From the NCBI GenBank assembly GCA_022072445.1, contig JAJVHV010000030.1, positions 5,971-69,970 of the forward strand: DNA of 64,000 nucleotides, in the 5' to 3' direction. This document shows positions 6,603 to 64,000 of the stretch, in pieces. This DNA comes from Phycisphaerae bacterium (lineage in GTDB: Bacteria; Planctomycetota; Phycisphaerae; UBA1845; Fen-1342). The translations under genes were made by a program, and so were the position numbers. How positions within the stretch are numbered: position 1 is the first letter of the stretch; the number at the start of each line of letters is the position of its first letter. The notes under the pieces are model-generated. The model had not been told where the DNA came from. It ran no database searches and worked only from the letters and a program-made list of their open reading frames with translations.

Positions 6603-9359
6603 CTAGTGTGCGACCGCTCCAATCCCATCGACGATGAGCTGGAGCGGATCGCCGATCGGCAACACGAACAGGTCGGCGTTGACCAGCTCGTTGCGCAGCG
6701 GCAGCGGGCCGGGGCCGTCGAAGTCGATCGGCGCCTCGACGTTGTGGATGCTGCCGAACACCAGGTTCAGCAGCGCCAGCGACATGAACGGGTTGACGCG
6801 CGTCGCGCCGTTCAGCGCGTTGGCACCGTTGAAGAACTCCGGCGGTGCGAAGGCGGCCAGCAGGTTGACCGTCACGTTGGGCCGGCCGAAACGGAACGCG
6901 TTCAGGCGCGGCTTGAGGTTGCGGGCCACCAGCGCGACGCCGTTCAGCAGCTTCGGCGTGCTCGCCTGCCAGTCGATGTCCTGTGGTGCCGGGAAGCCGT
7001 TGTTGTCGGCGCGGCGGTAGTAGCGTTCGACGAACGTGGAGCGCCAATCGGCCGGGTTGTGCAGGAATTCGCGGAAGTCGAAGACCGGCTCGCCGGCATC
7101 CTGGACGTTGTTGTTATTGAAATCATCGTAGTACGGCGCGCCGTCCGCATCGTAGCCCGGGTTGGCGACGTGCGTGCCGAAGAAGTGCGTCGAGGTCTCG
7201 GGCGCCAGCGTGATGCCCAGAATGGCGGTCGGCGAGATCAGGACGTTGGTCGTCTCGTCGCCTGGCGTAAGCTGCAGCGGGGCGCCGTTGGGGCTGATGA
7301 GCTGGAAGAATCCGGTGCTGTTCGAATCGGGCAGGAACATCACAAAGTACGTGCCCTCGGGGTTGTACGTCGCCACACCCTCGACAAAGTCAACCTGCAC
7401 CGGTTCGCCGTCCGGGCCGAACTGATCCATCAGCACAAAGGCGCTGAAGTTCGGCGGGTTGGTCTCCGGATCGGCCGGCTGGCTGGGATCGAAGTCGGGG
7501 TTCTGAATCCGCAACGCGGGTGCGCCCGGATAGCCCGTGAACGTCTGGGAGAACGCGTCGCCAAACGCCTCGCCATTGACCGTCTCGAACACGGATCCGT
7601 CCATGACGTCGACGATCTGGCGAATACCCTTGCGATTGTGCAGCGGCCGGCCATTGCGACGATCGATGAACTCGACGGCCTGCCCACCCGGCGTCGGGTT
7701 GGCAAATCCGAGGAAGTAGCCGCCGGTGCCGTTACTAATGAAGCGGGCGCTGCTGACGCTGCCGTTGCTGTCCTGAATGATGTCGACGGTGACCGGCGCG
7801 GCGTTGGGGTTCTGGAAGCCGTCCTCGGTGGCCAGGGCGAAAACCTGCGCGGGACCGGAGCGGCTGAACGGCAAATGCGCACGCTGCGCGCGGATGAAGC
7901 GCGCGAACTCGTCCAGGCTGGGAACGCGATCCAGCAGGATACCGGCGTAGATCTCGTCGAACGACGGCTCGGCAGTCGGCGCGAGGAAGTCAATCATCAG
8001 CTTGCGCACGTCGGCCTTGTGCTGCTCGAAGTTGCCGTCGAAGTTAAACATGCCCAGCATCTGAATCTGCTCGTGCAGCAGACCCAGGTTGACCTCGACC
8101 GGGTTGCCGTCGATGCCCAGGAACACCTCGCTGGGCGGTTCGCCCGGGCCATTCGGCCGGACGAACATATAGCGCGCCCCCATGCCGTACTCGAGGTTCA
8201 CGACGATCGCGTGCAGCCCCGACAGGTCGATCGTCTTGCCGTCGAGGAAGAGCTGCGCGAGCTGCGTCAGGATGTGCTCGGAGAAAATCGGCCCGCGGCC
8301 CGGACCGCCGCTCAGATCCTCTTCCGGGAAATTGCGGTCAAACTCGCTGATCGTGGAGTAGTAGAGATCTGGACCCGTAACCGGCACACCCTGTGCCGCG
8401 TCGTCGCCGTGCTCAAAGTGAAAATCCTGGAACGCGACCTTCTGCACCGCCGGCAGCGAACCCAGGAACGAGAGGTCGATGCCGCCCGCGTCGTCGGCGA
8501 TCACGAACCCGCCGCGCAGCATGATCTGCGCCGCGGCCACGACCACGTCGTCAACCGTGTCGGCCTGCGAAAGCTGCACGTTCGCCGCCGCCATGTCCAT
8601 CGCGCGTCGGGCGGCGTCGGGAATAACCGTGTCGAAGAGCGAAGCGAGCACGTCGTCGGCCAGACCCAGCAGCTCGTCGATCGTGATCTCCTCATCTACG
8701 CCCGAATCGCTGAAGAGATTCTCGAACGCGTCGCGGATGCGCGCGACCAGGCCAGAAAGGCTCAGCTCGAATTCGCGCGGGTCGAGGCCGACCGAGACGA
8801 GCATCGCGCGAATCTTGGCGTGAATCAGCGTGCTCAGCGGGTCGACCACGACGCCCGTCAGCGCACCGTCGGTCGAGTTCTCAGTCGCTGGAATGTTGAC
8901 GATCGTCTTCAGGTCGGCGTCCCCGTCGCCGTCAAAGTCCACGTTCAGCACGATGTCCACACCGACCGGCAGTCCGGAAACGCTGAACGACCCGTCGGTT
9001 GCGATACTGAAGCTGGGATACGGCTCGCCGTTGGCGTCGAGCAGCGCGTCGCCATTGAGATCGGTGAACCACCCGGTGGCGTTCGTTGCGATCGCGCGGG
9101 AACGGAGCTTTCGCGCGGACGGGGAATCGCCGGCGTCGCTGGTGGTGGAAACGGAGTCCACGTTACCGCTCACGGAGCCGCCAAAACTCAGCGCCGTTGA
9201 CGAAACGTCGCCCGCCGCCCCGTCGGTCGAGCCACCCGTGCCGTCCGTCGTGCCGCCCGTGCCGTCGTCATCGCCGTCGTTGTTCCCCTGCTGCGGGCAG
9301 CCGGCAAGCAGCAGGCAGACCGCGAGGGGGGTGATTGCGTGAAGCCACCATCTGGTCAT
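6603..9359 (-). CDS. large secreted lipoprotein of unknown function
   Basis: ATG at 9359 gives MTRWWLHAITPLAVCLLLAGC (lipobox), then a Gly/Asp/Thr-rich linker; 918 aa ORF with no recognisable catalytic motif. Confidence 0.7.
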   Translation of the reverse strand: MTRWWLHAITPLAVCLLLAGCPQQGNNDGDDDGTGGTTDGTGGSTDGAAGDVSSTALSFGGSVSGNVDSVSTTSDAGDSPSARKLRSRAIATNATGWFTDLNGDALLDANGEPYPSFSIATDGSFSVSGLPVGVDIVLNVDFDGDGDADLKTIVNIPATENSTDGALTGVVVDPLSTLIHAKIRAMLVSVGLDPREFELSLSGLVARIRDAFENLFSDSGVDEEITIDELLGLADDVLASLFDTVIPDAARRAMDMAAANVQLSQADTVDDVVVAAAQIMLRGGFVIADDAGGIDLSFLGSLPAVQKVAFQDFHFEHGDDAAQGVPVTGPDLYYSTISEFDRNFPEEDLSGGPGRGPIFSEHILTQLAQLFLDGKTIDLSGLHAIVVNLEYGMGARYMFVRPNGPGEPPSEVFLGIDGNPVEVNLGLLHEQIQMLGMFNFDGNFEQHKADVRKLMIDFLAPTAEPSFDEIYAGILLDRVPSLDEFARFIRAQRAHLPFSRSGPAQVFALATEDGFQNPNAAPVTVDIIQDSNGSVSSARFISNGTGGYFLGFANPTPGGQAVEFIDRRNGRPLHNRKGIRQIVDVMDGSVFETVNGEAFGDAFSQTFTGYPGAPALRIQNPDFDPSQPADPETNPPNFSAFVLMDQFGPDGEPVQVDFVEGVATYNPEGTYFVMFLPDSNSTGFFQLISPNGAPLQLTPGDETTNVLISPTAILGITLAPETSTHFFGTHVANPGYDADGAPYYDDFNNNNVQDAGEPVFDFREFLHNPADWRSTFVERYYRRADNNGFPAPQDIDWQASTPKLLNGVALVARNLKPRLNAFRFGRPNVTVNLLAAFAPPEFFNGANALNGATRVNPFMSLALLNLVFGSIHNVEAPIDFDGPGPLPLRNELVNADLFVLPIGDPLQLIVDGIGAVAH

Positions 9360-9653
9360 TGTTCCACGTCTCCTGAAGTGCCCGAAAGGTGCCGCGCAAC
9401 CTTTGCGCTGCACTGGCGGGGAACTTGACCCCGCGTCGAACACTTTGTCGTGACGCGCCCGCGAGAACTTGAAAACCGCTCGGAAATGGCGCGATTCTGC
9501 GCCCGGAACGGTTGAGCAGACCGACGCCGATCGGCATAATCGAGCGCTAGCGGGCGCCCGCGGGCCGGTGCGGGCCCGCGGCGGCGGCTGGAGTTCCGGC
9601 AAGGGCGCGCAGCGGCGCGCCGACACACGTCACCCTCTGCTCGAGAGTCTGTC

Positions 9654-10451
9654 ATGGCCAAGAAAAAGGCGGCACGGAAAGTGAAGAAGGCGAAGAAAGC
9701 CAAGAAGGGACTCAAGAAAGTCGCGATCGCCAAGGCGAAAAAATCCGCCCGAAAGCGCGCAGCGCGGCCGAAGGCGACCCGAAGCTCCAGGCCCGCCACC
9801 GCCCGCAAGAGCGCCGGCCGCACCGTCAAGAAAGCCGCCGCGACGCGCGCCCCGGCGGCCGGCCGAGCCGCCAGCACGCGCGTCGTGAAGTCCGCCAGCG
9901 CGGCCGAAACACGCGTCGCCGCCCGTGCGCCCGTTCCCCCGAAGATCGCGCCGCTGACACCCGCGGTCGGCGAGCCCGCGCCCGACTTCGCGCTGCAGGA
10001 CGAGCGCGGCAACACGCGCACGCTCAGTGCCTATCGCGGCCGCACGCTGGTGCTCTATTTCTATCCCAAGGACGACACGCCCGGCTGCACGCTTGAAGCC
10101 TGCGCGTTTCGCGATGCGTCCTCCGAGTTCGACGCTCTGGCCGCCGCCATCGTCGGCGTCTCGCCCGACACGTCGGAGAGTCATGCGGCTTTCGCGCAGA
10201 AGTTCAGCCTGCCGTTCACGCTGCTGGCCGATCCCGACCATCGCGTCTGCGAGAAATACGGCGTGTGGCGCGAGAAGAATCTCTACGGCGAGACGCGGAT
10301 GGGCGTGGTGCGGACGACGTTCGTCATCGACGAGAACGGCCGCGTCGCGCAGGTCTTCGAGGGCGTCCGGCCCGACGGGCACGACCGTGAAGTGCTGACC
10401 TGGCTGCGCTCGCGCCAGCCCGCGCCCAGCATCGCCCCGAGCGGGTATTGA
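9654..10451 (+). CDS. bcp: peroxiredoxin Bcp/PrxQ fused to an N-terminal Lys/Ala-rich histone H1-like extension
   Basis: C-terminal 150 aa carry Bcp motifs (LVLYFYPKDDTPGCT...FSLPFTLLADPD). The N-terminal ~105 aa are KAKK/AKKA repeats; Lys codons are rare in this GC-rich DNA, which argues the extension is genuinely coding. Confidence 0.8.
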   Translation: MAKKKAARKVKKAKKAKKGLKKVAIAKAKKSARKRAARPKATRSSRPATARKSAGRTVKKAAATRAPAAGRAASTRVVKSASAAETRVAARAPVPPKIAPLTPAVGEPAPDFALQDERGNTRTLSAYRGRTLVLYFYPKDDTPGCTLEACAFRDASSEFDALAAAIVGVSPDTSESHAAFAQKFSLPFTLLADPDHRVCEKYGVWREKNLYGETRMGVVRTTFVIDENGRVAQVFEGVRPDGHDREVLTWLRSRQPAPSIAPSGY

Positions 10452-51178: not shown

Positions 51179-54100
51179 CTACCTCACACTGAAATACCGC
51201 GCCGCGGGATGATGCGCGATCACCGCGCTGGTGCTCTGCTCCGGATCAAGCTGGTATTCGTCGCTGAGCGAAACGCCGATGCGCTGCGGCTCGAGCAACT
51301 GCATGAGCTTGGCCTGGTCTTCCAGGTTCGGGCAGGCCGGGTAGCCGAAGCTGAAGCGGCTGCCCTGGTAGCCCTGCTGAAACAGCTTCTGCCGCTCGCG
51401 GGCGTCGTCGCCGGCGATCCCAAGCTCCATCCGCACCTGCTTGTGCACGTATTCGGCCAGCGCCTCGGCGGTCTCGACGCCCAGGCCGTGCAGGAAGAGG
51501 TATTGCTGATACTCGTTGCGGGCGAACCACTCGCGGGCCACCTCGCTGACGCGCTGGCCGGCGGTCACCAGCGAAAGGGCGATCACGTCGGTCTCCCCGC
51601 TCTCGACCGGTCGCCAGAAGTCGGACAGACACCAGTGCGGCGGCTTCTGCTGCCGCGGGAAGGTGAAGCGGGCCACTTCACAGCCACGTTGCGACGGAGA
51701 CAAGGGCGAGCGAGAAGGTAGCCCGAATGAGCCACGGAGGGAGGGAGCGGCTCGATCGCTGGACAGGCCCGGAGAAGCGAGCGCAATCGGAGTCGATCCC
51801 GGCGCAGACGCCATCGACTCCAGTCCTTCCTTCCCCTTCGTGCCTCCGTGGCTTCCTGGCTTCGTGGCGCCTTCTCCTTTCGTGGCTTCGTGGCTTCGTG
51901 GCTTCGTGGCTGTGTCCCAGATGATCAGATCGTCGCCGTCGGAGTTGCAGGGCCAGTAGCCGTAGATGGCCTGCGGCCGGAGGATCGCCTCGCGCTCGCA
52001 ACGCGCGACCAGCTCGCGGTAGATCGGCCGCACGTCGCGGTCGATGTAGCGGCGGAAGTCATCGCCGGCGCGGCCGCGCTTGCGGAAGCCCCACTGCACC
52101 TGGAAGAGCATGATCTCGTTCATGTAGCCCAGAGCGGCCTTGAGCGGGATGTGCTCGAGCACGCGCGCACCCCAGAAGGGCGGCGCGGGAATGGCGTTGT
52201 CGATCGGGATTTCGGAGCGGCGGCGCGGCGGCGCGGCGGCGCGGGCGCGGTCAATCGCGCTGGCCGCGACGAGCGGGCCCTCGGCGACGGCGTCGTCATC
52301 CTCGGCGGTCTCGCCGATGGCGGCGAGGCCGAAGCGCTGCTCGGCGTCGAGGTCGAGGCGGCGCGGGGGTTGGGCGGCGGAGATCGACGCTGCTTCCAGG
52401 TCCGGGCGGTCCTTGCGTCCGAAGGAAACCCCTCCCTTACGGTCGGGGCTCGGCTGGGTGGCGGCGCTCGGCTGGGTGATTTCTCGTTCTTCCAACGCTT
52501 CGTCGCGTTGTCGCTTTTCCCCTTGGTCGTTTCGTCGCTCTGTCGCTTCGTCGCGTCGCCCCGTCGTCGCTTCGTCGCTTCGTCGCTTCGTCGCTGTGAT
52601 CTCCCCCATCAGCCGCAGACCCTCGAACGCGTCCTTCGCGTATGAGAGGCTTCCGGCGTAGAGCGGGCGCAGGTCGTTCTCGACGTAGCCGCGCGTCAGC
52701 GCGGCGCCGCCGAGGATGACCGGCACGCGGATGCCCTGCTCCTCGAGCACGAGCAGATCGTCGCGCATCACCAGCGTCGACTTCACCAGCAGGCCCGACA
52801 GCCCGATCGCGTCGGCGGCGTGCTCGCGCCAGGCGGCGATGACGTTGTTGATCGGCTGCTTGATGCCCAGGTTGAACACGCGGTAGCCGTTGTTGGTCAG
52901 AATGATGTCGACCAGGTTCTTGCCGATGTCGTGCACGTCGCCGCGGACGGTCGCCAGCACGATCCTGCCGCGCGACGTGTCGGCGGAGCGGTCCATGTGC
53001 GGCTCAAGCAGGGCGACGGCGGCTTTCATCGTCTCGGCGGACTTGAGCACGAAGGGGAGCTGCATCTGGCCCGAGCCGAAGAGGTCGCCGACGGTCTTCA
53101 TGCCGTCGAGCAGCAGGTTGTTGATGATGTCGAGCGGCGCGTAGGTCTGGAGCGCGACGGCGAGGTCGGCGTCGAGGCCGATTCTCTCGCCGTCGATGAT
53201 GCGGCGTTTGAGGCGCTCCTCGATGGGCAGGTCGGCGATCTTGACTTTCGTGCCGACTTGTTCGGTATCGGAGAAGAGGCCGATAAACCGAACCAGCGGG
53301 TCCTCATGTGGCACAGCCGCCCCCGGCTGTGAATGTGGCACAGCCGCCCCCGGCAGTGGCTGTGGCTGTGCCACATCGTAGATCAAATTCAGCGCCGCCT
53401 CCCAGCGCTCGTCGCTGATCTGATTGCGCGGCAGGATCTTGCTCGAATGCACGATCGCCGCGGTCAGGCCGCGCTGCCGGGCCTCGTGCAGGAACACAGA
53501 ATTGAGGACCGCGCGGGCGGCGGGGACAAGGCCGAAGCTGACGTTGCTGACGCCCAGGATCGACTGGCAGCGCGGGAAGCGCGTCATCACCGCTTCGATG
53601 CCGTCGAGCGTCTCGAGCGCCAGCCGCCGATCGGCCTCGTTGCCGGTCGTGATCGGGAATGTCAGGCAATCGAAGAAGATGTCCTCTTCGGCGACGCCGT
53701 ACTTGCGCGTGAGCAGGTCGTGAATGCGCGTGGCGATTTCGAGCTTGCGCTGCGCGGTCTTGGCCATGCTCTCGATCGGGTCTTCGTCGATCGTGAGCGC
53801 GACGACGGCGGCGCCGTATTGCCGCAGCAGCCGCGCGACGCGGGCCATCTTGACTTCGCCGTCCTCGAGGTTGACGGAGTTGACGATGCACTTGCCGCCG
53901 ATGAGCTTCAGGCCGGCTTCGATCACCTCGGGCTCGGTGCTGTCGAGCATGATGGGGACGTTGACGTCGACGGCGTAGCGGTCGGCGACGCGCGTCATGT
54001 CGGCGACGCCGTCGCGCCCGACGTAGTCGACGCACAGGTCGAGGACGTGCGCGCCTTCCTTCACCTGCTCGACGCCCACCTGCACCAGGCCCTCGATGTC

Positions 54101-55363
54101 GCCTTCCGCGAGCAGGCGTTTGAACTGCCGGCTGCCGTTGGTGTTGCTGCGCTCGCCGACGATCAGAAAGCTGTTGTCCTGGCGGTAGGGCATGGCCTGG
54201 TAAAGGCTGCTGCACGCCGCCTCACGAGATCGGCTCGGCGATGGGCCTAATGCAGAATGAAGAATGCAGAATGCAGAAGCGTCCTCCGTCGTCGAGCCGG
54301 GCTCAGGTTTCGTCGCCGGTGCGGGCGGATGCTCGGCGGACCCAGAAAGGCCGATTGCAGAGGCATCCGGCGACGAAGAACCGGTTTCTGCATTCCGCGT
54401 TCTGCATTCTGCATTGCTTTCTGCATTGCCGTGGAATCCGATCGCCTCCACCACCGCGCGCAGATGCGCCGGCGTCGTGCCGCAGCAGCCGCCGACGATC
54501 CGCACGCCGTCAACGTCGACGAACTCCTTCAGCCAGCGGGCCAGCTCGGCCGGCGCGAGCGGGAAGTGCGTACGCCCGCTGACGAGCTGCGGCAGGCCGG
54601 CGTTCGGCATCACGCTGATCGGACGCGTGCTGTTCCGCGCCAGATACCGCACGTGCTCGCTCATCTCCTGCGGCCCGGTGGCGCAGTTCAACCCGATTAC
54701 GTCGACTTCCGGATACGCCTCGATCGCCACCAGCGCGGCGGCGACGTCGGTGCCCACCAGCATCGTGCCGGTGGTCTCCATGGTTACCTGCACCATGAGC
54801 GGCAAGCGCTTGCCGGTTTTCTCGAACGCCGACAGCACGGCCCAGATCACGGCCTTGGCGTGCAGGATGTCCTGACACGTCTCGATCAGCATCGCGTCGC
54901 AGCCGCCGTCGATCAGCCCGCGGGCCTGCTCGCCGTAGCTCTCGAGCAGCCCGTCGTACGAAATCTGCCGCAGCGTCGGCAGCTTCGTCCCCGGACCGAG
55001 CGAGCCGACGACGAAGCGCGGCCGCGGCAGCGTCGAAAACGCCTCGCACGCCCGCCGCGCGATCTTCGCCGCCGCGACGTTGATCTCGTAGCAGCGGTCA
55101 GCCAGGCCGAACTCGGCCAGCACGTGCCGCATGCCGCCGAAGGTGTTGGTTTCGACCGCGTCGCAGCCGACGTCGAGAAAGCTGCGGTGAATTTGCTCGA
55201 CGGCGTCGGGGCGGGTGAGGTTCAGGACTTCGCAGCAGTTTTCGAGGCCGTTGTAGTCGCTCAGCGGCAGATCGAGCGCGTGGATGCTGGTGCCCATGGC
55301 GCCGTCGAGAAACACCACGCGCCGCCCGACGAGTTCCAGAAACGCCGATTCCGATCCGCGCAA
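51179..55363 (-). CDS. metH: cobalamin-dependent methionine synthase, 1394 aa with several in-frame low-complexity/repeat insertions
   Basis: All four modules recognisable: homocysteine-binding (GAMGTSI...GGCCGTTPAH), pterin-binding, B12-binding (DVHDIGKN) and AdoMet activation (FPRQ). About 160 aa longer than typical because of repeat insertions. Confidence 0.9.
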   Translation of the reverse strand: MRGSESAFLELVGRRVVFLDGAMGTSIHALDLPLSDYNGLENCCEVLNLTRPDAVEQIHRSFLDVGCDAVETNTFGGMRHVLAEFGLADRCYEINVAAAKIARRACEAFSTLPRPRFVVGSLGPGTKLPTLRQISYDGLLESYGEQARGLIDGGCDAMLIETCQDILHAKAVIWAVLSAFEKTGKRLPLMVQVTMETTGTMLVGTDVAAALVAIEAYPEVDVIGLNCATGPQEMSEHVRYLARNSTRPISVMPNAGLPQLVSGRTHFPLAPAELARWLKEFVDVDGVRIVGGCCGTTPAHLRAVVEAIGFHGNAESNAECRTRNAETGSSSPDASAIGLSGSAEHPPAPATKPEPGSTTEDASAFCILHSALGPSPSRSREAACSSLYQAMPYRQDNSFLIVGERSNTNGSRQFKRLLAEGDIEGLVQVGVEQVKEGAHVLDLCVDYVGRDGVADMTRVADRYAVDVNVPIMLDSTEPEVIEAGLKLIGGKCIVNSVNLEDGEVKMARVARLLRQYGAAVVALTIDEDPIESMAKTAQRKLEIATRIHDLLTRKYGVAEEDIFFDCLTFPITTGNEADRRLALETLDGIEAVMTRFPRCQSILGVSNVSFGLVPAARAVLNSVFLHEARQRGLTAAIVHSSKILPRNQISDERWEAALNLIYDVAQPQPLPGAAVPHSQPGAAVPHEDPLVRFIGLFSDTEQVGTKVKIADLPIEERLKRRIIDGERIGLDADLAVALQTYAPLDIINNLLLDGMKTVGDLFGSGQMQLPFVLKSAETMKAAVALLEPHMDRSADTSRGRIVLATVRGDVHDIGKNLVDIILTNNGYRVFNLGIKQPINNVIAAWREHAADAIGLSGLLVKSTLVMRDDLLVLEEQGIRVPVILGGAALTRGYVENDLRPLYAGSLSYAKDAFEGLRLMGEITATKRRSDEATTGRRDEATERRNDQGEKRQRDEALEEREITQPSAATQPSPDRKGGVSFGRKDRPDLEAASISAAQPPRRLDLDAEQRFGLAAIGETAEDDDAVAEGPLVAASAIDRARAAAPPRRRSEIPIDNAIPAPPFWGARVLEHIPLKAALGYMNEIMLFQVQWGFRKRGRAGDDFRRYIDRDVRPIYRELVARCEREAILRPQAIYGYWPCNSDGDDLIIWDTATKPRSHEATKGEGATKPGSHGGTKGKEGLESMASAPGSTPIALASPGLSSDRAAPSLRGSFGLPSRSPLSPSQRGCEVARFTFPRQQKPPHWCLSDFWRPVESGETDVIALSLVTAGQRVSEVAREWFARNEYQQYLFLHGLGVETAEALAEYVHKQVRMELGIAGDDARERQKLFQQGYQGSRFSFGYPACPNLEDQAKLMQLLEPQRIGVSLSDEYQLDPEQSTSAVIAHHPAARYFSVR
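53305..53375. repeat. 27-bp-period tandem duplication plus inverted partial copy inside metH
   Basis: ATGTGGCACAGCCGCCCCCGGC occurs twice (53305, 53332), then GGCTGTGCCACAT inverted at 53363; encodes PGAAVPHSQ/PGAAVPHED in MetH. Confidence 0.85.
54251..54427. repeat. heptamer-array-bounded inverted-repeat mini-element (MITE-like) inserted in frame in metH
   Basis: (TGCAGAA)4 at 54251-54278 and (TTCTGCA)n at 54386-54427 in inverted orientation, about 107 bp apart; 177 bp = 59 codons without stops in the metH frame. Confidence 0.8.
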
Positions 55364-56671: not shown

Positions 56672-57079
56672 ATGGAAACGTCCCCCGGCATCCTGGGTCG
56701 ATTGTCCGAAAAAGTGCTCGGTTGGATCGCGCTGGGCCTGCTCGTCGCGCTGGGAATCGCCATCTGGCAGACCCCCGCCGACACCAAGCAGGCCATCTGG
56801 AGTGGCGTCTGGCGCGCCACGGCGTGGCTTGCGATCGTCGCGACGTTGCCCTGGGCCAGCCGCCTCTTCATGGGTCGCGTGCTGGAGCAATCGTCGAACT
56901 GGGCCGGGGTGGCGCTGGTCGCCGCTTACTGCCTGGCGGACGTGATCGCGGCGGTGTGCCTGATGACGGTCTGGCCGGCGAGCGGTTGGGCCTGGTTCCT
57001 GAGCGCCGTCGCGCTGGCCATCGCAGGGACGTATAATTATCTGGTTTGCGAGTATGTCGCGGAACAATCGGGCCTATGA
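56672..57079 (+). CDS. small polytopic membrane protein
   Basis: Four predicted TM helices; immediately precedes the kinase gene. Confidence 0.5.
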   Translation: METSPGILGRLSEKVLGWIALGLLVALGIAIWQTPADTKQAIWSGVWRATAWLAIVATLPWASRLFMGRVLEQSSNWAGVALVAAYCLADVIAAVCLMTVWPASGWAWFLSAVALAIAGTYNYLVCEYVAEQSGL

Positions 57080-57122
57080 AGCCGATCTGTGAACAATGCG
57101 GGCGGCTTTGCGGGGTCGAGCG

Positions 57123-58196
57123 ATGAGCACGAAATATCAGACCGGGCTGCGCGTCAGCGAATACGTACTGGAAGAATGCGTCGGCAGCGGCGCGTTCGCC
57201 GAGGTTTGGCGCGCCCGGCATCACATTTGGGAGTCCGAACAGGTCGCGGTGAAACTGCCGCTCCAGCCCGAATTCGCGCGCTATCTGCGGCGCGAGGGCG
57301 CGGTGGTCCACGGCGTGCGGCACGCCAACGTCGTGCGCGTCCTGGGGATCGACCCGTACGGCGAGATTCCGTATCTGGTCATGGAGCTGGTGCGCGGTCC
57401 GTCGCTCAAAAGCGTGATCGTCGAGCATCGCACCGGCGTGCCGGTCGACCTGGCGCTGCGCGTTTTCCGCGGCATCCTGACCGGGTTGGCGGCCGCGCAC
57501 GAAGCGAATGTGATTCACCGCGACATCAAGCCGGGCAACATCCTGCTCGATCTCAATGGCAAGCCGCTGTCGGAGCTGCGCAGCGAGCAGGTGAAGCTGG
57601 GCGACTTCGGCTTCGGGCTGGCCGACGTCGACGCCATGCAGTCGATCGCGCAGTCGGCGTCGATCAGCCGCTCCGACGCTCTGGTCGGAACGATCGCGTA
57701 CATGGCCCCGGAGCTGCGCGACGGGCACGCGGCAGCCGACGAGAAGTCCGACCTGTACGCCGTCGGGGTGGTGCTCTTTGAGCTGCTGACCGGCGAGCGG
57801 CCGGCCGGCGCCGAGCTGCCCAGCAGTGTCCGGCCGGCGATCAGCCCGGCGCTCGACGAGCTATTCAAGAAACTCTATGCGCGGCACGACCGCCGCTACG
57901 CCTCGGCCAACGCCGTGCTGCACGACCTGGACGCGCGGGTGCCCGCCCCCGACGGGGCGCCCGGCGCGCCGCACCTGCCGCCCTTGCCCGAGTCGGGCCG
58001 CCCGCGTTCGTCGCGGGCGAACTGGACGTGCGGCTCGTGCCATCGGCCGGCCGATCCGGCCGACCAGTTCTGCATCCACTGCGGGGCCCAACTGGTCGAG
58101 CGCGTGCGGCGTTGTCCGGGCTGCGATGGGTTTCCCGGCGTGGACGATCGATTCTGCATTTTTTGCGGCGCGTCGCTGCCGCCCGTGACCACGTGA
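57123..58196 (+). CDS. Ser/Thr protein kinase with C-terminal double zinc ribbon
   Basis: GSGAFAEVW, VAVK, HRDIKPGNILL, DFG, APE motifs; C-terminal CGSCHR...CIHCG...CPGCDG...CIFCG. Confidence 0.85.
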   Translation: MSTKYQTGLRVSEYVLEECVGSGAFAEVWRARHHIWESEQVAVKLPLQPEFARYLRREGAVVHGVRHANVVRVLGIDPYGEIPYLVMELVRGPSLKSVIVEHRTGVPVDLALRVFRGILTGLAAAHEANVIHRDIKPGNILLDLNGKPLSELRSEQVKLGDFGFGLADVDAMQSIAQSASISRSDALVGTIAYMAPELRDGHAAADEKSDLYAVGVVLFELLTGERPAGAELPSSVRPAISPALDELFKKLYARHDRRYASANAVLHDLDARVPAPDGAPGAPHLPPLPESGRPRSSRANWTCGSCHRPADPADQFCIHCGAQLVERVRRCPGCDGFPGVDDRFCIFCGASLPPVTT

Positions 58197-58207: not shown

Positions 58208-58504
58208 ATGCACGGCCAAGGCGTCATTGTCCTCTGGGTTTTCGGCCTGCTGTTCGTCGGCGTCATCGGCATCGCCATGCTGGTGCTTGTCGCCGTTCTG
58301 CGCGCCGGCGGCAGGATTTTCCGGCACGTCGGTTTGGCCATGGGCGAGACCGGCGGCCGCGGGTCGGCCCCCTCGGGTGCCGCGGGCCGGCCGCGCTTCT
58401 GCACGCGGCGCGGCTGCCTGCATCCCAACCGCGGCGCGGCCCGCTTCTGCGCCCGCTGTGGTCAGGCGCTCGGCGGCGGGTACGATACGGAACTGTATGG
58501 ATGA
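58208..58504 (+). CDS. small membrane protein with C-terminal zinc ribbon
   Basis: TM segment VIVLWVFGLLFVGVIGIAMLVLVAVL and CTRRGCLHP...CARCG. Confidence 0.5.
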   Translation: MHGQGVIVLWVFGLLFVGVIGIAMLVLVAVLRAGGRIFRHVGLAMGETGGRGSAPSGAAGRPRFCTRRGCLHPNRGAARFCARCGQALGGGYDTELYG

Positions 58505-59969
58505 GATCGCGCGACAGCGGCAGTTTGAGGAGCAGTTCCTCCAGCAGATCCGCGCCAAGGCCGCCGGCCTGACGCGCGGCACCCTGCCCGCCGACCGCGT
58601 CGTCGTCGAAAAGGTGCCCGACGGCATCGACGGCGTGCGGGCCACGCTGAGCCGCCTGGAGGTCTTCGATCACGAGCTGCTGCACCGCATGCCGGGCACG
58701 CAGGCCTGCCAGCTCAAGTTCACACGCTCGATGCTCGGCGGCCTGATGGAGCGGACCGTCTCGCGGCTGCGGGCCGTCGTGCTCGCGCCGGTCGCCGCGC
58801 TGGCCACCGGTCAGGCGCCCGGACCGGTGACCCGCGAGGACGTGCTCAACGCGCTGGCTCGCTACGACCTGATGCCGCGCGGCATGAGACCCACCGGCGT
58901 GGTCTTCGCCGCGCCCACCGGCTTCAGCGACAGCGCCCGCTCGCTGGTGAACGGGCCCGGTTCGCCTACGGTGATTCTGATGGGCGGCCGGGCCGACGGC
59001 GGCTGGGACGTGAGCATGTCCGATGCGGTCGCGAAGAGTCCCTGGGGCAAGCTCTTCGAGCTCGAAACGCAGGACGAGCTGGTCAAGCGCCTCGCGCATC
59101 ATCTCGACGAGTCCGCCGACCTCGTCGATTCTCGCGGACTGTCGATCGAGGAGCTGAGCGAGAAACTCGGCGTGGACCGCGACAAGACCGAGACCCTGGT
59201 GCGCAAACTGGCCCGCACCGACCCGCGCATCATGACCGTCGCCCACGACGGCCGAACGCACGTGTGCCGTACACCCTTCGCCGAGGAGGGCTCTTCCATG
59301 AGTCTCTGGAGCCGAGTTCGCAGACTGCTGCGGCTGAAGCCGACCGTCGCCGAGCAGGTGCGCGAGATGACCGCGCAGCGCGTCAAGCTGGAGCAGCAGC
59401 GCTTCGAGATCGACCGCGCGGTCAACAAGCTCCAGGACGAAGAGGTGCGCATCGTCAAGAGCGGGGCCGCCGCCACCACCGACGTCGAAAAACGCCAGCT
59501 TGCCAGCAAGCTCGTGCGCCTGCGGCGCGACCTGGGCCGGCAAAAGGCCCAGGCCGACGTGCTCACCAAACAGATCGACATCATCGGCACGCACCTGCAC
59601 CATCTGACGCTGGCCGAGCGCGGGCGCCGCATGGAACTGCCCAAGGCCGAGGAGCTGACGCGCGAGGCGGCCCAGGCCGAACAGGTCATGGCCGATCTCT
59701 CGGCCAACGCCGAACTGGCCGTGGGCATCGAAGTTGGCGGCGGGGCGCAGGCCGTGTCGGATGAGGAAGCGGCGATCCTCGAAGAATTCGCGGCGGCGGC
59801 GGGGACGACGCCGGTGAAGGAAACGCCCGCGGCGGCGCCGGCGGCGGGCGAATCGGGACGGGTGGCGGATGCCGGCCGGTCAGGCCCGGTCCGCGCACCC
59901 AGCGCAGCGCCGCCGGTGCCTGGTGCGGCGGCGTCGAAGCGTGAGTCGGCGAAGCCGGAGATGGGGTAG
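58497..59969 (+). CDS. fusion protein: N-terminal domain with winged-helix-like segment + C-terminal ESCRT-III/Snf7-like coiled-coil domain
   Basis: ATG 58497 overlaps the upstream stop (ATGGATGA). The C-terminal 200 aa follow the ESCRT-III helix pattern (LWSRVRRLLRLK...QVREMTAQRVKLEQQRFEIDRAVNKLQDEE...KRQLASKLVRLRRDLGRQKAQADVLTKQIDII...) with an acidic tail. Confidence 0.55.
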   Translation: MDEIARQRQFEEQFLQQIRAKAAGLTRGTLPADRVVVEKVPDGIDGVRATLSRLEVFDHELLHRMPGTQACQLKFTRSMLGGLMERTVSRLRAVVLAPVAALATGQAPGPVTREDVLNALARYDLMPRGMRPTGVVFAAPTGFSDSARSLVNGPGSPTVILMGGRADGGWDVSMSDAVAKSPWGKLFELETQDELVKRLAHHLDESADLVDSRGLSIEELSEKLGVDRDKTETLVRKLARTDPRIMTVAHDGRTHVCRTPFAEEGSSMSLWSRVRRLLRLKPTVAEQVREMTAQRVKLEQQRFEIDRAVNKLQDEEVRIVKSGAAATTDVEKRQLASKLVRLRRDLGRQKAQADVLTKQIDIIGTHLHHLTLAERGRRMELPKAEELTREAAQAEQVMADLSANAELAVGIEVGGGAQAVSDEEAAILEEFAAAAGTTPVKETPAAAPAAGESGRVADAGRSGPVRAPSAAPPVPGAAASKRESAKPEMG

Positions 59970-59984: not shown

Positions 59985-60351
59985 GATGGACATGGCAAGT
60001 GCGCTGCCCACAGAGCTGCTGTTGCGTAAGCCCGTCGGCGAAGAAACTCTGCGTGAGCTTGTTCGCCGCATCGCCCAGCTTCGTAGCGACGCTTGCATCA
60101 TTCTGTTTGGGTCGCGGGCGCGCGGGGACGCACGGCCGGGGAGCGATCTTGATCTGATGGTTATCACGCAGGCGGATCGGAGTCCGCTGGCGATCGCGGG
60201 CGATCTCTACGCGGCACTGGCGGACCGTGATTTCGGGTTAGATATCGTCGTCATGCCGCGCGACCGCGTGCGGCGGGCACGAGACGGGTTCGATCCTTTT
60301 CTGAACGAGGTGCTCGCACAAGGCAGAGTCCTGCATGGCCGACTGCATTGA
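59985..60351 (+). CDS. minimal nucleotidyltransferase (MNT, Pol-beta superfamily)
   Basis: ILFGSRARGDARPGSDLDLMV (GS...D.D). Confidence 0.8.
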
Positions 60352-60724
60352 CTTTGAAGACTGGCTGGCCAAAGCGGAGGGAGATCGAGAAGGCGCCATG
60401 CTGCTGATGCGCGAATTCAGCAAATCTATCGCCGGCCTGATTGCCTTTTTGTGTCAGCAGTCGGTGGAGAAGTACCTCAAGGCGCTCCTGGTGCGTCAAC
60501 GAGTCTCTTTTCCTCGTACGCATGACCTGGCGGCGCTTGCGGCAGGCAGCTATCCGGACATCGCTCGAATTCAGCCATCGCTCGCGCGACTTCAGCCGTA
60601 TGCGGTTAATGTGCGATACCCTGGATTTGATCCGGAGCGCCCCGAATGCGAAGAGGCGATCGGCCATCTGGAACGAGTCCGGTCACATTGCCGCGAGCTG
60701 CTCGAATTGGGTGAGTGCGAATGA
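60335..60724 (+). CDS. HEPN domain protein (partner of the MNT)
   Basis: AVEKYLKALL...R-x6-H (RVSFPRTH); overlaps the MNT 3' end. Confidence 0.8.
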   Translation: MADCIDFEDWLAKAEGDREGAMLLMREFSKSIAGLIAFLCQQSVEKYLKALLVRQRVSFPRTHDLAALAAGSYPDIARIQPSLARLQPYAVNVRYPGFDPERPECEEAIGHLERVRSHCRELLELGECE

Positions 60725-61326
60725 ACTTCTTCACCTGGCTGACGACCAAACGCAAGACGCTCGCGACGATGAGCGCCGCCGAGCTGCGCGCCCAGGAGAT
60801 GATGCTCGAGAACGAGCGCGACCGCATGCTGAAGCGCATGGAGAAGCTGGCCGGCGAGAAGCACCAGGTGATCGAGCGCGGCGCGAAGGAACGCACGCCC
60901 GAGCTGCGTAAGACCTACGCGCAGCAGTTCGACCTGCTGCACACCGAGCAGATGATGCTCAGCCGGCACCTGAACATCCGCAGCAAGGAGCTGCTGACCG
61001 TCTCGCGGCTGCGCATGCTGCGCGAGACGGCCCAGCGGGCCGGCACCGGCATGGGTGCGTTCGGCACGATTCGCGAAAAGGATCTGGCGGTGATCGAGGC
61101 CCTGATCGAGAACGACAAGGTCACCACCGACATGTACCAGGAGCGGCTCGACGCGATCCTGCAGATCGGCGCGGCGGCGGACGAGGAGGCGACCGGCCTT
61201 TCGGCGGCGGCGGGCGAGCTGCTCAAGGTCTGGAACGACATGGACGCCGGGCTGATCTCCAACACGGCCGAAGCGTTCGACGAGGCGGAGAAGCGGGTGC
61301 GTGAGAGAAACAGAGCAGCGGAGTAG
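60721..61326 (+). CDS. ESCRT-III/Snf7-like coiled-coil protein
   Basis: MNFFTWLTTKRKT...AELRAQEMMLENERDRMLKRMEKLAGEKHQVIERGAK...MLSRHLNIRSKELLTVSRLRMLRETAQ... mirrors the Snf7 helix 1-4 layout; start ATGA-coupled to the HEPN gene. Confidence 0.55.
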   Translation: MNFFTWLTTKRKTLATMSAAELRAQEMMLENERDRMLKRMEKLAGEKHQVIERGAKERTPELRKTYAQQFDLLHTEQMMLSRHLNIRSKELLTVSRLRMLRETAQRAGTGMGAFGTIREKDLAVIEALIENDKVTTDMYQERLDAILQIGAAADEEATGLSAAAGELLKVWNDMDAGLISNTAEAFDEAEKRVRERNRAAE

Positions 61327-61332
61327 CCTCAT

Positions 61333-61701
61333 ATGCAACGACGCCCGAACCAGCGCGAAAACCGCGAGGCGCTCCGCGGCCCGATTGACAATCGCGTCAT
61401 TGGACAAATCGTAGACCGCTTGTCCAAGCGGTTGCCGGACTGCTGCATTGTGCTTTTCGGCTCCCGGGCCTACGGAACGCCGACCAGCCAGAGTGACGTT
61501 GATCTGCTGGTGGTGGCCCCGTCGCAACGTGACCCGTACGTGCTCTGCGGCGAACTACATCGCGAACTCAGTCCACGGGATTTCTCCGTTGATCTACTGG
61601 TCATGACGCCCGAGACTTTTCGTCAGCGCCGCTCACGGTTTGATCCGTTTTTTGCAGAACTCACCTCAAAGGGCCGCGTCCTGCATGGTCATCTCCCCTG
61701 A
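61333..61701 (+). CDS. minimal nucleotidyltransferase (MNT)
   Basis: VLFGSRAYGTPTSQSDVDLLV. Confidence 0.8.
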   Translation: MQRRPNQRENREALRGPIDNRVIGQIVDRLSKRLPDCCIVLFGSRAYGTPTSQSDVDLLVVAPSQRDPYVLCGELHRELSPRDFSVDLLVMTPETFRQRRSRFDPFFAELTSKGRVLHGHLP

Positions 61702-62071
61702 TGCGGCGGAATGGGTCGATCGCGCCGAAGGGGACGTGCGCGCGCTTCGGAAGCTCGACCCAGTCGAGGATCGTGTCGTCGTGGCGTTTCTCGCTCAGCA
61801 GGCCGCGGAGAAGTACCTGAAGGCCACTCTGGTCAACAGCCGGATATGCTTTCCAAAACCACACGACTTGGTCGCGCTCGTCTCCCTGTGTCGGCAGATC
61901 AGTGATGAATTCGAGTCGTTGGTGGGCGCTGCCGCCGTGTTGCAGCCCTTTGCGGTGGACGTGCGATATCCCGGACCCGCCCCCGGAGAGGCCGCCGTGC
62001 GGGCGGCGATTGAGAATATGGACGTGATCCGAACCTTTTGCCGCGAGAGGCTTGCGCTGCAAGCGCCCTGA
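61685..62071 (+). CDS. HEPN domain protein
   Basis: AAEKYLKATL...R-x6-H (RICFPKPH); overlaps the MNT 3' end. Confidence 0.8.
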   Translation: MVISPDAAEWVDRAEGDVRALRKLDPVEDRVVVAFLAQQAAEKYLKATLVNSRICFPKPHDLVALVSLCRQISDEFESLVGAAAVLQPFAVDVRYPGPAPGEAAVRAAIENMDVIRTFCRERLALQAP

Positions 62072-62095
62072 ACGGCGATCACGCGGAGATGTACG

Positions 62096-62713
62096 ATGGC
62101 CCTATTCAAGTCAAAAGAAGAGCGCCGCATCGAGCAGGACATCAAGATCCGCCAGGGCATCCGCCGGATCGAGAAGTCCATCAGCGAGCAGAGCAAGTTC
62201 ACCGACGAGTTCGTGAAGAACGCCCGGCATGCGAAACAGATCGGCGACAACGGGCAGTATGTCTTCATCCGCAACTCGCTCAAGAAGACCGCCACCATCA
62301 AGAAGCTGCTCGAACGGCAGCTTCTGAGCGTCAAAAACGCGCTGCTGATCAAACGCCAGGCCGAGGCCTCGGCCGATTTCGCCAACGCCATGAGCCTGAT
62401 GGCCCGCGAAGTGGGCAAGCTCTACGGCGACACCGATCTCGTGAAGACGCAGACCGACTGGGAGAAGGCGCTGCTGCAGAGCCAGACGATGGAGGAGCGC
62501 ATGCAGATGTTCCTCGATTCGATCGAAAGCGGCGCCGCGGCCGACATCGCCGCCTCGCCGACGGCCGCCGAAGCGATCAGCGACGACGAGATCGACCGCA
62601 TGATCGCGGTTGAGGAGCAGGTGGAGAAGGCGAAGGAGACGCAGCAGATGTCGGCGCTGCGGGCGGAGCTGGCGGAGCTGAAGGGGGAGAGTAAGGATAA
62701 GGAGACGAAGTGA
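62096..62713 (+). CDS. ESCRT-III/CHMP-like coiled-coil protein
   Basis: MALFKSKEERRIEQDIKIRQGIRRIEKSISEQSKFTDEFVKNARHAKQIGDNGQYVFIRNSLKK...ANAMSLMA matches the CHMP2/Snf7 layout (MSLFGK start, basic helix 1-2, acidic C-terminus). Confidence 0.6.
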   Translation: MALFKSKEERRIEQDIKIRQGIRRIEKSISEQSKFTDEFVKNARHAKQIGDNGQYVFIRNSLKKTATIKKLLERQLLSVKNALLIKRQAEASADFANAMSLMAREVGKLYGDTDLVKTQTDWEKALLQSQTMEERMQMFLDSIESGAAADIAASPTAAEAISDDEIDRMIAVEEQVEKAKETQQMSALRAELAELKGESKDKETK

Positions 62714-62850
62714 GGGCGGGCGTCTCCATGACTCAGGGACAGCTTGAATCGTGGGATGTCGTCCGCGGGCAGGTCCCGATTCTGGAACCAGATGAAGAAA
62801 GAGGACAAGTACAACGCGATTCATGAGCCGGATGACGACACGCCAGACGA

Positions 62851-63549
62851 GTGAGAGCATTGCCGATTAAGCCGCAGAAGTGGTTAGAGATGCTTGCTGA
62901 GGACTTGGTGCGCGACATCACGTCCAACCACTCGTTGCGCAGGTACACGACAAACGCGGATCTGCTTGGGGCGTGGGCTGAAGCGTGCGTACGAAACCTG
63001 ATTGCTCGCATGGTTCATCCGCTGCGAGTCTCACGCGGTGCGATCGTTTACGAAGGCATTTGCCCGGACGAAGTCCCAGAGCTGGATGCCATCGTGTGGA
63101 CCGCCGCACCCGTGCCGGCGGTCTTCGATCTTGGCGACTTTGCAATAGTACCGCGCGGCTCGGCCGTTGCTTTTCTTGAAGTCAAGCGAAGCGCGTACAC
63201 CGGCGTAAGCGACCGGATGCGCAAGACGCTCAACGGTACTGAGTGTCTCATCACACATTGCGAGCAAGAAAAGGGAACGCGCTTGGACGGAGAGGCTCTG
63301 GGTGTCGTCTGCATGAAGAGAGAGGACCAGAAACTCGACCGCACACTCCAAAGGCTCATGGACGACCAGAAGGCTGTTCTGCTCCTTGAGGAGAAGAATG
63401 GGTCCTGGAGGGCCATGGCGAGGGACGTACTTCGGCTTGTGAACTTTCTCGCGGCGGTGCGGGTCCGTGCGTTCGTCCTTGCATCCCAGCTCGGCGTAAA
63501 CACCGAGATTCTGGCTCCGGTACTAGGTAGCGACGGGACAGCGTCATGA
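62851..63549 (+). CDS. hypothetical protein, possible PD-(D/E)xK-like nuclease fold
   Basis: D...FLEVKRS spacing (D-x13-E-V-K); weak. Confidence 0.35.
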   Translation: MRALPIKPQKWLEMLAEDLVRDITSNHSLRRYTTNADLLGAWAEACVRNLIARMVHPLRVSRGAIVYEGICPDEVPELDAIVWTAAPVPAVFDLGDFAIVPRGSAVAFLEVKRSAYTGVSDRMRKTLNGTECLITHCEQEKGTRLDGEALGVVCMKREDQKLDRTLQRLMDDQKAVLLLEEKNGSWRAMARDVLRLVNFLAAVRVRAFVLASQLGVNTEILAPVLGSDGTAS

Positions 63550-63887
63550 TCGGTATCTGCACGCCCGTTCGAGTCACCGACGAACGGATCGCCGAAGTCG
63601 TGCGCCGCCTGGTCGAGGCGTTGCATCCGCAGCGCATCTACCTCTTCGGCTCGCATGCCTACGGAACGCCTCACGCGGACAGCGACGTCGACCTCCTTGT
63701 GCTGGTTGATGACGCCGAGCTGACGCAGGACGATCATGACCAGCGCGGCTATCGCTCTCTGCGCGGGATGTTTCTACCCATCGAGCTGCACATTCGAGGT
63801 CGGCAGGCGTTCGAACGGCGCGCGGTCGCTCCTCACAGTTTCGAGAACGAGATCCTGCGAAAGGGCAAGCTGCTCTATGCCGCGTGA
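63546..63887 (+). CDS. minimal nucleotidyltransferase (MNT)
   Basis: YLFGSHAYGTPHADSDVDLLV. Confidence 0.8.
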   Translation: MIGICTPVRVTDERIAEVVRRLVEALHPQRIYLFGSHAYGTPHADSDVDLLVLVDDAELTQDDHDQRGYRSLRGMFLPIELHIRGRQAFERRAVAPHSFENEILRKGKLLYAA

Positions 63888-64000
63888 TCCCGCTCTCATA
63901 CGCGAGTGGCTGCAGAAGGCCCGAAACGACCTCGAGACCGCGCGGCGCGCGATGGCCGAGAAGCCCATTCTCGATACCGGGTGCTTTCATTGCCAGCAGG
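63877..64000 (+). CDS. HEPN domain protein, 5' part only (runs off the window)
   Basis: MPRDPALIREWLQKARNDLETARRAM...; overlaps the MNT stop. Confidence 0.6.
   Translation, partial: MPRDPALIREWLQKARNDLETARRAMAEKPILDTGCFHCQQ

Follow-up and report, generated by a model that had tools for sequence, protein, structure and literature searches.

The stretch of DNA analysed here, 64,000 nucleotides of contig JAJVHV010000030.1 from a Phycisphaerae bacterium (hereafter the window), runs at its 3′ end into an operon in which three pairs of genes, each encoding a minimal nucleotidyltransferase (MNT) and a HEPN protein, alternate with the genes of three coiled-coil proteins, CC1, CC2 and CC3, upstream of a gene for an AAA ATPase. 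The data argue, with a probability that we would place at about 70%, for the accretion of mobile MNT-HEPN modules as co-directional passengers in three junctions of a conserved, vertically inherited Phycisphaerae operon: J1, between CC1 and CC2; J2, between CC2 and CC3; and J3, between CC3 and the ATPase gene. The operon works without the pairs in most species, the MNT-HEPN module lives elsewhere without the operon, and the strict interleaving is a peculiarity of the window genome. The pairs are neither structural nor obligatory regulatory parts of the ESCRT-III-like/AAA machine.

All of the genes concerned are on the plus strand. CC1 (58497..59969, 490 aa), as called on a contig described below, is followed in J1 by cassette 1, consisting of MNT1 (59986..60351) and HEPN1 (60335..60724). 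CC2 (60721..61326, 201 aa) is followed in J2 by cassette 2, in which MNT2 (61333..61701) precedes HEPN2 (61685..62071, likewise called on that contig), and the latter ends 24 bp 5′ of CC3 (62096..62713, 205 aa). J3 contains the open reading frame (ORF) of a hypothetical protein of 219 aa (62890..63549; 232 aa if translation starts at the GTG at 62851) and then cassette 3, with MNT3 (63546..63887) and the 5′ part of HEPN3 (63877..64000), which leaves the window. Logan contig L001 matches the window letter for letter across 7552 bp and reaches 2.5 kb past its end (L001 positions 7857-10412). On L001 the full HEPN3 gene encodes 141 aa and ends at window-equivalent position 64302, and the ATPase gene (window-equivalent 64305-65447, plus strand, 380 aa) begins 2 bp 3′ of it.

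This is the order reported in the first-pass annotation of this DNA, in which CC1 was termed ESCRT-III(1), and every gene was found at its place. The overlaps described there were also recovered: each HEPN gene overlaps its MNT partner, by 17 nt in pairs 1 and 2 and by 11 nt in pair 3, and the ATGA at 60721-60724 is common to the HEPN1 stop and the CC2 start, the latter (MNFF) being invariant among CC2 homologues. A second ATGA overlap links the stop of the hypothetical gene to the start of MNT3. The remaining intergenic gaps measure 2-24 bp, with the exception of 176 bp 5′ of the hypothetical gene. No terminator-like sites were found on the plus strand at any junction, and no sigma-70-like promoter sites were found in the 10.4 kb scanned, although this last result is uninformative for a planctomycete. 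Judging from the gene overlaps, cotranscription of the pairs with the core genes is plausible. Hidden Markov models (HMMs) built from the operon copies detected no further MNT or HEPN genes in the remaining 60 kb of the window.

For comparison, one genome per GTDB species was scanned, which gave 209 relatives of CC3; 80 loci were taken from among these, and all window proteins were searched against them with tblastn. The core genes, in the order TM135, kinase, TM98, CC1, CC2, CC3, ATPase and then P356, a further protein encoded downstream, are kept in nearly all of the 80 Phycisphaerae loci, and the lengths of J1-J3 range from a few bp to 3.7 kb. All three junctions could be read in 53 loci. 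It is apparent that MNT/HEPN genes are absent from the majority of these (37 of 53), that one junction is occupied in a further 15, mostly J3, and that all three are occupied in a single locus, that of the window genome. Eight of the 53 are compact throughout (L012, L024, L035 and L039 are examples). When J3 is considered alone, a pair is present in 16 of 57 junctions. The synteny comparison that the first-pass annotation had recommended contradicts the notion that the pairs always accompany the ESCRT-III-like genes.

The distribution of the pairs is nevertheless not haphazard. Every one of the 28 MNT and 25 HEPN matches obtained with the HMMs lies in J1-J3 (101 kb of junction DNA in total), or just after CC3 in two loci without a detected ATPase gene, and the flanks, 770 kb in all, gave none even when E values of up to 10 were allowed; these counts have their limits, in that the flanks represent the same neighbourhood in each species and not whole genomes, the HMMs derive from operon copies and the matches are not independent events. 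Of the two halves of the observation which the first-pass annotation had said would refute it, orthologous arrays devoid of the pairs do exist, but a genome-wide random scatter of toxin-antitoxin (TA) pairs is not what was seen.

The MNT-HEPN pairs share the junctions with a variety of other genes. J1 may contain a DUF4258 gene, an IS200-like transposase gene or an endonuclease/exonuclease/phosphatase (Exo_endo_phos) gene. In the nearer clade, J2 often holds a gene for a four-helix-bundle protein of the 23S_rRNA_IVP family (22 loci, PF05635 E 1e-30), and in the deeper clade it holds a gene for a PspC-domain protein of 64-71 aa (PF04024 E 1e-22; 17 loci, including L044, at 7830-8036, L047 and L048). 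J3 has 13-18 copies of an AbiEii-like nucleotidyltransferase gene, a DUF5615 PIN-like and DUF433 pair in L047, and, elsewhere, genes for zinc-ribbon membrane proteins, TMEM260-like proteins and a histidine phosphatase. These contents are those of a permissive hot spot for TA, abortive-infection (Abi) and mobile genes. The PspC gene may be of a different nature, namely a genuine partner of PspA-like proteins.

Three further observations concern these inserts. In the J3 of two species, an AAA_21 gene (an ABC/OLD-type ATPase) stands beside a DUF4276 gene (L027 10349-12233, L056 5675-7454), an arrangement that resembles known defence-type pairs. The position of PspC between CC2 and CC3 is a contextual link to the Psp stress system, whose PspA belongs to the PspA/ESCRT-III superfamily. 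The idea that the IVP family belongs to the HEPN superfamily, which would place a HEPN-like gene in about half of the operons, was dropped, as hhalign returned a probability of 1%.

The repeated and strong enrichment of unrelated TA and Abi families exactly in J1-J3 is also what would be expected if the association were adaptive though optional. According to this alternative, the host is a Psp-like envelope-stress or division operon, read-through ties cassette dosage to operon expression, and a collapse or surge of operon transcription, as upon phage attack or membrane damage, would free the HEPN effector. The lack of room for cassette promoters, the start/stop overlaps with core genes, the abutment of HEPN3 on the ATPase gene across deep clades, the link to Psp-type stress biology provided by PspC in the deeper-clade J2, and at least three separate captures of MNT-HEPN by the same operon are all in accord with it. 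On the other hand, 70% of the species do without the pairs and eight have nothing in any junction, pseudogenisation is frequent, and inserts as varied and unrelated as transposase and phosphatase genes have the look of a permissive site more than of a selected partnership. Regulatory coupling of this kind is, on balance, considered rather unlikely.

Evidence that the module does not depend on the operon was obtained from metagenome contigs scanned with the HEPN alignment. At least 80 relatives were found, with identities of 33-46%. Among the matches listed, all have the MNT gene followed by the HEPN gene, the source DNA varies from 28 to 69% in G+C content, several are in tandem arrays, and none has a CC or ATPase gene as a neighbour. 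Of the HEPN3 homologues looked up, two (57 and 54% identity) again occupy J3 of this operon, whereas two more distant ones (48 and 40%) occur in unrelated contexts; unrelated taxa, too, are represented among the relatives. In L168, two MNT-HEPN pairs are interleaved with unrelated co-directional genes, which indicates that the module habitually intersperses itself among the genes of its host. Taken together, the 37 of 53 operons without pairs and the 80 or more metagenomic pairs without a CC or ATPase neighbour refute obligatory coupling in both directions. The first-pass annotation had left the choice between TA accretion in a hot spot and functional coupling; synteny favours the former, and the latter does not survive in its obligatory form.

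With respect to family membership, the three MNTs score 41.9, 39.8 and 40.7 bits against PF01909 (cut-off 21; E 1.3e-10, 6.2e-10 and 3.2e-10, respectively) and are likewise above the cut-off for PF18765. The catalytic motif of the family, which we take to be hG[GS]x9-13Dh[DE], is intact in the translations of all three: FGSRARGDARPGSDLDL in MNT1 (GS...DLD), FGSRAYGTPTSQSDVDL in MNT2 and FGSHAYGTPHADSDVDL in MNT3. HEPN1 and HEPN2 score 69.8 and 66.4 bits against PF05168 (cut-off 22; E 2.8e-19 and 3.3e-18), and the 41-aa fragment of HEPN3 in the window scores 26.3 bits (E 8.9e-6). The HEPN family profile matches PDB entries 1wol, 1ufb and 1o3u and the sacsin HEPN domain, for which the four-helix HEPN fold has been solved. 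The proteins are small (MNTs 113-122 aa, HEPNs 128-141 aa), with the MNT gene first. Judged by these sequence features, the pairs are MNT-HEPN modules of the widespread and autonomous COG1708/COG2250 type, which have been predicted to be mobile and TA-like, with mechanism unknown (Makarova, Wolf and Koonin 2009, PMC2701414).

An alignment of 23 operon HEPNs reveals invariant D17, K46, K49, P60, H63, R94 and Y95, with P96 nearly so; HEPN1 keeps D17, K46, K49, H63, R94 and Y95. In this alignment no conserved His was found downstream of R94-Y95, as the Rx4-6H RNase motif would require, and the invariant H63 sits in a PKTH motif 31 residues upstream of R94. As Rx4-6H is not conserved in these HEPNs, the HepT/MntA systems that have been characterised give no warrant for assuming toxicity. 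The designation of the pairs as TA or AMPylation modules in the first-pass annotation is thus reasonable by family, but must be qualified for HEPNs of the COG2250/PF05168 type. In PADLOC, the MNTs match only the generic candidate families PDC-S09 and PDC-M05A, and no matches were obtained for the HEPNs, CC2, CC3 or the hypothetical protein.

The lack of Rx4-6H in the HEPNs lends itself to another interpretation, in which MNT and HEPN form a two-subunit nucleotidyltransferase that, with HEPN binding the substrate as in kanamycin nucleotidyltransferase, would AMPylate or otherwise nucleotidylate the neighbouring ESCRT-III-like protein or the ATPase and so control polymer assembly. The original definition of PF05168/COG2250 was that of a nucleotidyltransferase substrate-binding domain, the catalytic motifs of the MNTs are intact, and the window genome has one pair per coiled-coil gene. 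That last pattern, however, is unique to the window genome; cassettes in J1 and J2 swap positions between species; the nearest relatives outside the operon have no CC or ATPase neighbours; and CC2 and CC3 are 70-85% conserved with or without a pair. Direct enzymatic regulation of this sort appears highly improbable.

The history of the operon copies was examined with neighbour-joining trees in which the metagenomic sequences were included. In these trees the copies from the operon fall into three clades that contain nothing else. One, with 13-17 members, is a J3 clade and is represented in each of the two deep operon clades; the second, with 6-7 members, includes cassette 1 of the window and mixes J1 with J2 positions from one species to another; and the third is a separate small J3 clade composed of L062 and L064. 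MNT3 belongs to the first of these, and the MNT tree puts the J1/J2 clade next to the J3 clade. Identities among the three pairs of the window amount to 27-41%, with MNT2 41% identical to MNT1 and 31% to MNT3, and the J1/J2 copies 27-31% identical to the J3 copy. By these sequence comparisons the three pairs of the window are either old paralogues or separate arrivals. Divergence among J3 pairs follows that of CC2 plus CC3 weakly (rho 0.35, Mantel p ~0.04) and is about twice as large.

Composition and decay are informative in the same connection. In 74 of 75 cases, the G+C content at third codon positions (GC3) is lower in the MNT, HEPN or IVP gene than in the core genes, the mean difference being -0.10 to -0.15. 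In the window, the inserts have GC3 values of 0.62-0.78 (MNT1 0.67, HEPN1 0.62, MNT2 0.66, HEPN2 0.74, hypothetical gene 0.68) versus 0.83-0.94 for the core genes (CC3 0.90; the core genes beside MNT1 0.88-0.94). HEPN is truncated in L004 and L021, MNT is split in L028, and HEPN is gone in L005 and kept in its near-identical relative L006.

These results bear on the proposal that an MNT-HEPN pair before the ATPase gene was an original, functional component of the operon that has been lost repeatedly, the J1/J2 copies being later duplicates. The presence of the J3 clade in both deep operon clades with its abutment on the ATPase gene kept, the weak positive congruence with core-gene distances, and the neighbouring positions of the J1/J2 and J3 clades in the MNT tree can be cited in its favour. 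It is opposed by the low occupancy of J3 (16 of 57), by the separately acquired J3 lineage of L062 and L064, by the persistently low GC3, which argues against very long residence, by the mere 27-31% identity between the J1/J2 copies and the J3 copy of the same genome, and by a footprint in L069, described next, of a cassette arriving beside an ATPase gene that was already there. An ancestral origin is accordingly regarded as very unlikely.

Footprints of arrival were observed in three loci. The MNT-HEPN cassette of L069 is preceded by a duplicate of the first 117 bp of the ATPase gene (91.5% identity), and that of L011 is followed by a duplicate of the last 123 bp of CC3 (99%); in L062 there is a 55-bp remnant of the 5′ end of the ATPase gene. 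Such duplicated ends would be left by a cassette that entered with part of the adjacent core gene, through homology-facilitated illegitimate recombination. No integrase was found in the junctions, and no conserved att-like motif common to the insert-free junctions was seen. Integron-like cassettes were considered and rejected, the flanking gaps of 2-24 bp being too short for attC sites. Some insert-free junctions of relatives are taken up by short tandem repeats, such as GACTTTTT, GGCAATC and GCAAGTAA (L069 ~8320-8440, L057 ~9880-9990 and L045 ~10140-10220).

A mechanism for the proposed accretion can be outlined from these data. Spread among the Phycisphaerae would rely on recombination for which the highly conserved core genes serve as anchors, each entry involving a crossover in such a gene and one illegitimate join. 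Core-anchored recombination would explain the private clades of the operon copies, the conserved abutment of HEPN3 on the ATPase gene, and the choice of a very conserved operon as a hot spot. Once in place, the cassettes, with no room for a promoter of their own, would be transcribed by read-through from the operon promoter, and their translation would be coupled at the ATGA and short overlaps. The MNT would nucleotidylate its HEPN partner, possibly on the invariant Tyr95 beside the invariant Arg, and so neutralise it, and the pair would persist by addiction. The hypothetical gene may travel with cassette 3, as its ATGA overlap with MNT3 suggests. Its product, a lineage-specific J3 insert, has no Pfam, NCBIfam or PADLOC match, and none of the other 80 loci contains a homologue of it; on visual inspection, ELDAIVW ... 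FLEVKRS in its sequence resembles a PD-(D/E)xK nuclease motif.

Several points weigh against accretion by passengers. The concentration of the pairs in one operon (28 of 28 MNT matches) is extreme, and selection for a local function could also yield it. In species of both deep clades, 2-10 bp separate the J3 pair from the ATPase gene that follows it, and this, with the weak correlation of divergences, suggests long residence. The invariant polar residues of the HEPNs indicate, at the level of sequence, that intact copies of the pair are under purifying selection. The GC3 gap may stem in part from the very high codon bias of the core genes, and PspC, a likely genuine partner, also has a GC3 difference of -0.06. 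It might be supposed that the concentration of cassettes is adaptive, in that they are wired to the ESCRT-III-like/Vps4-like machine by cotranscription or direct nucleotidylation, and toxin release is coupled to failure of, or attack on, that machine. We view this broader supposition as decidedly unlikely. If it were true, it would represent a new kind of link between a cytokinesis or membrane-repair apparatus and effectors of the abortive-infection type. The machine itself may act in division or envelope repair of the FtsZ-less Phycisphaerae.

The MNT-HEPN genes thus stand outside the minimal coiled-coil/ATPase system and can be omitted from reconstitution or deletion designs. The locus is also an unusual hot spot, in which three consecutive junctions of one packed operon repeatedly gather apparently promoter-less cassettes of the TA/Abi type. 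As such it offers a clean natural setting in which to study selfish modules that are carried along by essential operons.

More remarkable than the pairs is the operon that harbours them. Upstream of CC1 it begins with TM135 (56672..57079, plus strand), a small membrane protein without a Pfam match, the first conserved gene of the core, which tblastn showed to keep its position in most of the 80 loci. It is followed by a Ser/Thr protein kinase gene with a C-terminal double zinc ribbon (57096..58196, plus strand; Pkinase and DZR domains on L001 and NCBIfam kinase matches), which is kept in related loci, and by TM98 (58208..58504, plus strand), encoding a small transmembrane protein with a four-Cys zinc-ribbon motif (NCBIfam 4Cys_prefix_kin, 24.3 bits, cut-off 24) and present in most near-clade loci. 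On L001, a small membrane protein and then a larger protein of unknown function are encoded 3′ of the ATPase gene.

Homologues of CC2 and CC3, at 70-85% identity, number from hundreds to thousands, and those that are named all come from Phycisphaerae or Planctomycetota; for CC3 the number is 1848, with ~80% identity across the class. CC1, CC2 and CC3 have no Pfam or NCBIfam match. For CC2 and CC3 in particular, neither Snf7 (PF03357) nor PspA_IM30 (PF04012) was matched, and their profiles found no ESCRT-III or PspA chain among PDB sequences at E ≤ 10. BLASTP detected no similarity among the three proteins. The C-terminal module of CC1 is, however, homologous to the N-terminal part of CC2 (hhalign probability 78%, E 1.8e-5, from CC2 residue 1). 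Between CC2 and CC3, hhalign gave nothing either, and no paralogy of CC3 with CC1 or CC2 was detectable. CC1 has the appearance of a fusion, with an N-terminal domain of ~265 aa, for which no relatives were detectable, a CC2-like module that opens with a Met of its own (MSLWSRVRRLL...) and a tail rich in Pro and Ala, an architecture which suggests an ancient gene fusion or an internal start.

Structure prediction hints at a likeness that sequence searches did not show. The AlphaFold model of CC2 (predicted local distance difference test score, pLDDT, 73) has an N-terminal helix at residues 3-16, a putative alpha0, then a long helical hairpin and shorter helices, as in a candidate ESCRT-III/PspA-like protein. 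The AlphaFold 2 model of CC3 (pLDDT 71) likewise has a long hairpin and then shorter helices (residues 7-49, 52-110, 115-152 and 163-195), and the top five PDB matches obtained with Foldseek are to CdvB, CdvB2 and CHMP2A-CHMP3; probabilities reach 0.99, but no E value is below 0.08. CC3 ends in a sequence, QQMSALRAELxxLKG (residues ~184-197), that is invariant in 33 of 33 aligned homologues; we take it to resemble MIM1, the motif by which ESCRT-III tails bind the MIT domain of Vps4.

The ATPase has AAA, AAA_lid_3 and Vps4_C domains on L001, the last scoring 29.1 bits (cut-off 21.3), and an ATPase with this combination is found downstream of CC3 in most related loci long enough to show it. Its C-terminal 96 aa are nearest to p97/Cdc48 D2 (E 4e-19), followed by katanin (1e-11) and CdvC/Vps4 (4lcb, 4e-9). 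At the N-terminus, a conserved helical region of 75 aa, with weak TPR-type profile matches and no MIT match, precedes a Gly/Arg/Asp-rich linker. On the basis of predicted fold and gene context, the label of ESCRT-III-like proteins with a Vps4-like ATPase is reasonable as a provisional one. The operon is a candidate for a machine of cell division or membrane repair. Division in planctomycetes proceeds without FtsZ, and ESCRT goes unmentioned in a review of the phylum from 2025 (PMC12673574); a Vps4-like ATPase appears, according to another review, to be absent from bacteria (PMC7619361). The interest of the operon is that, throughout a class of FtsZ-less bacteria, it would bring ESCRT-III-like proteins together with a Cdc48/Vps4-type ATPase and a Ser/Thr kinase, joined in some lineages by PspC, whereas current reviews deny ESCRT-III plus Vps4 pairings in bacteria.

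Two observations on repeats are recorded here. A REP-like (repetitive extragenic palindrome-like) sequence, CACAGCCGCCCCCGGCTGTG, occurs in two tandem copies at window positions 53312-53358 (plus strand), inside the ORF of the methionine synthase MetH (51179-55363, minus strand), where it reads in frame as QPGAAVPHSQPGAAVPH; MetH (1394 aa) has other low-complexity inserts too. The same palindrome is present in two copies just 3′ of the AAA ATPase gene (L001 ~9100-9150).

The findings may be compared with four kinds of known system. The first is the COG1708/COG2250 module, represented by 1o3u (TM0613), 1ufb (TT1696) and 1wol (ST). The pairs described here share with it a small MNT gene followed by an overlapping small HEPN gene, the PF01909 and PF05168 domains and the PDB profile matches to 1wol, 1ufb and 1o3u, as well as a patchy, mobile distribution, tandem arrays elsewhere and atypical composition. 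They differ in that they reside inside a conserved operon without upstream promoter space, overlap host genes translationally and form private clades.

The second is the type VII TA system HepT/MntA, characterised in Shewanella (SO_3166/SO_3165), Aphanizomenon and Legionella (PMC7641770, PMC11586414). Common to both are the two folds, the position of the nucleotidyltransferase gene first, an intact GSx(n)DxD motif in the MNT and, in the HEPN, an invariant Tyr beside an invariant Arg, which could be a nucleotidylation site. HepT toxins are, however, of the DUF86/COG2361-2445 type with Rx4-6H(xY), while the HEPNs of the operon have R-Y-P and no conserved His 4-6 residues further on.

Defence islands and hot spots of horizontal gene transfer are the third. 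Features held in common are a complement of TA, Abi, defence-like and transposase genes that changes from species to species within a constant frame of conserved genes, atypical composition, decay, and recombination footprints in flanking core genes. What distinguishes the present case is that three consecutive junctions inside one tightly packed operon are affected, and that the inserts are co-directional and apparently promoter-less, with no integrase or att site found in the junctions.

For the host operon, finally, the comparison is with ESCRT-III/Vps4 and PspA/Vipp1 (PMC10936438, PMC7619361, PMC8281802). The CC proteins have no Snf7 or PspA Pfam match, and the solved structures nearest to the C-terminal region of the ATPase are those of p97/Cdc48 D2 and not of Vps4. 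The points of agreement are coiled-coil proteins of ~200 aa with a predicted alpha1-alpha2 hairpin, a predicted alpha0 helix in CC2 and a MIM1-like C-terminal motif in CC3. As in archaeal and eukaryotic ESCRT-III plus Vps4, a single-cassette AAA ATPase with Vps4_C lies downstream; as in many archaeal ESCRT loci, a Ser/Thr kinase is present; and, as in PspA/Vipp1 systems, a PspC gene is found in some relatives of the operon.

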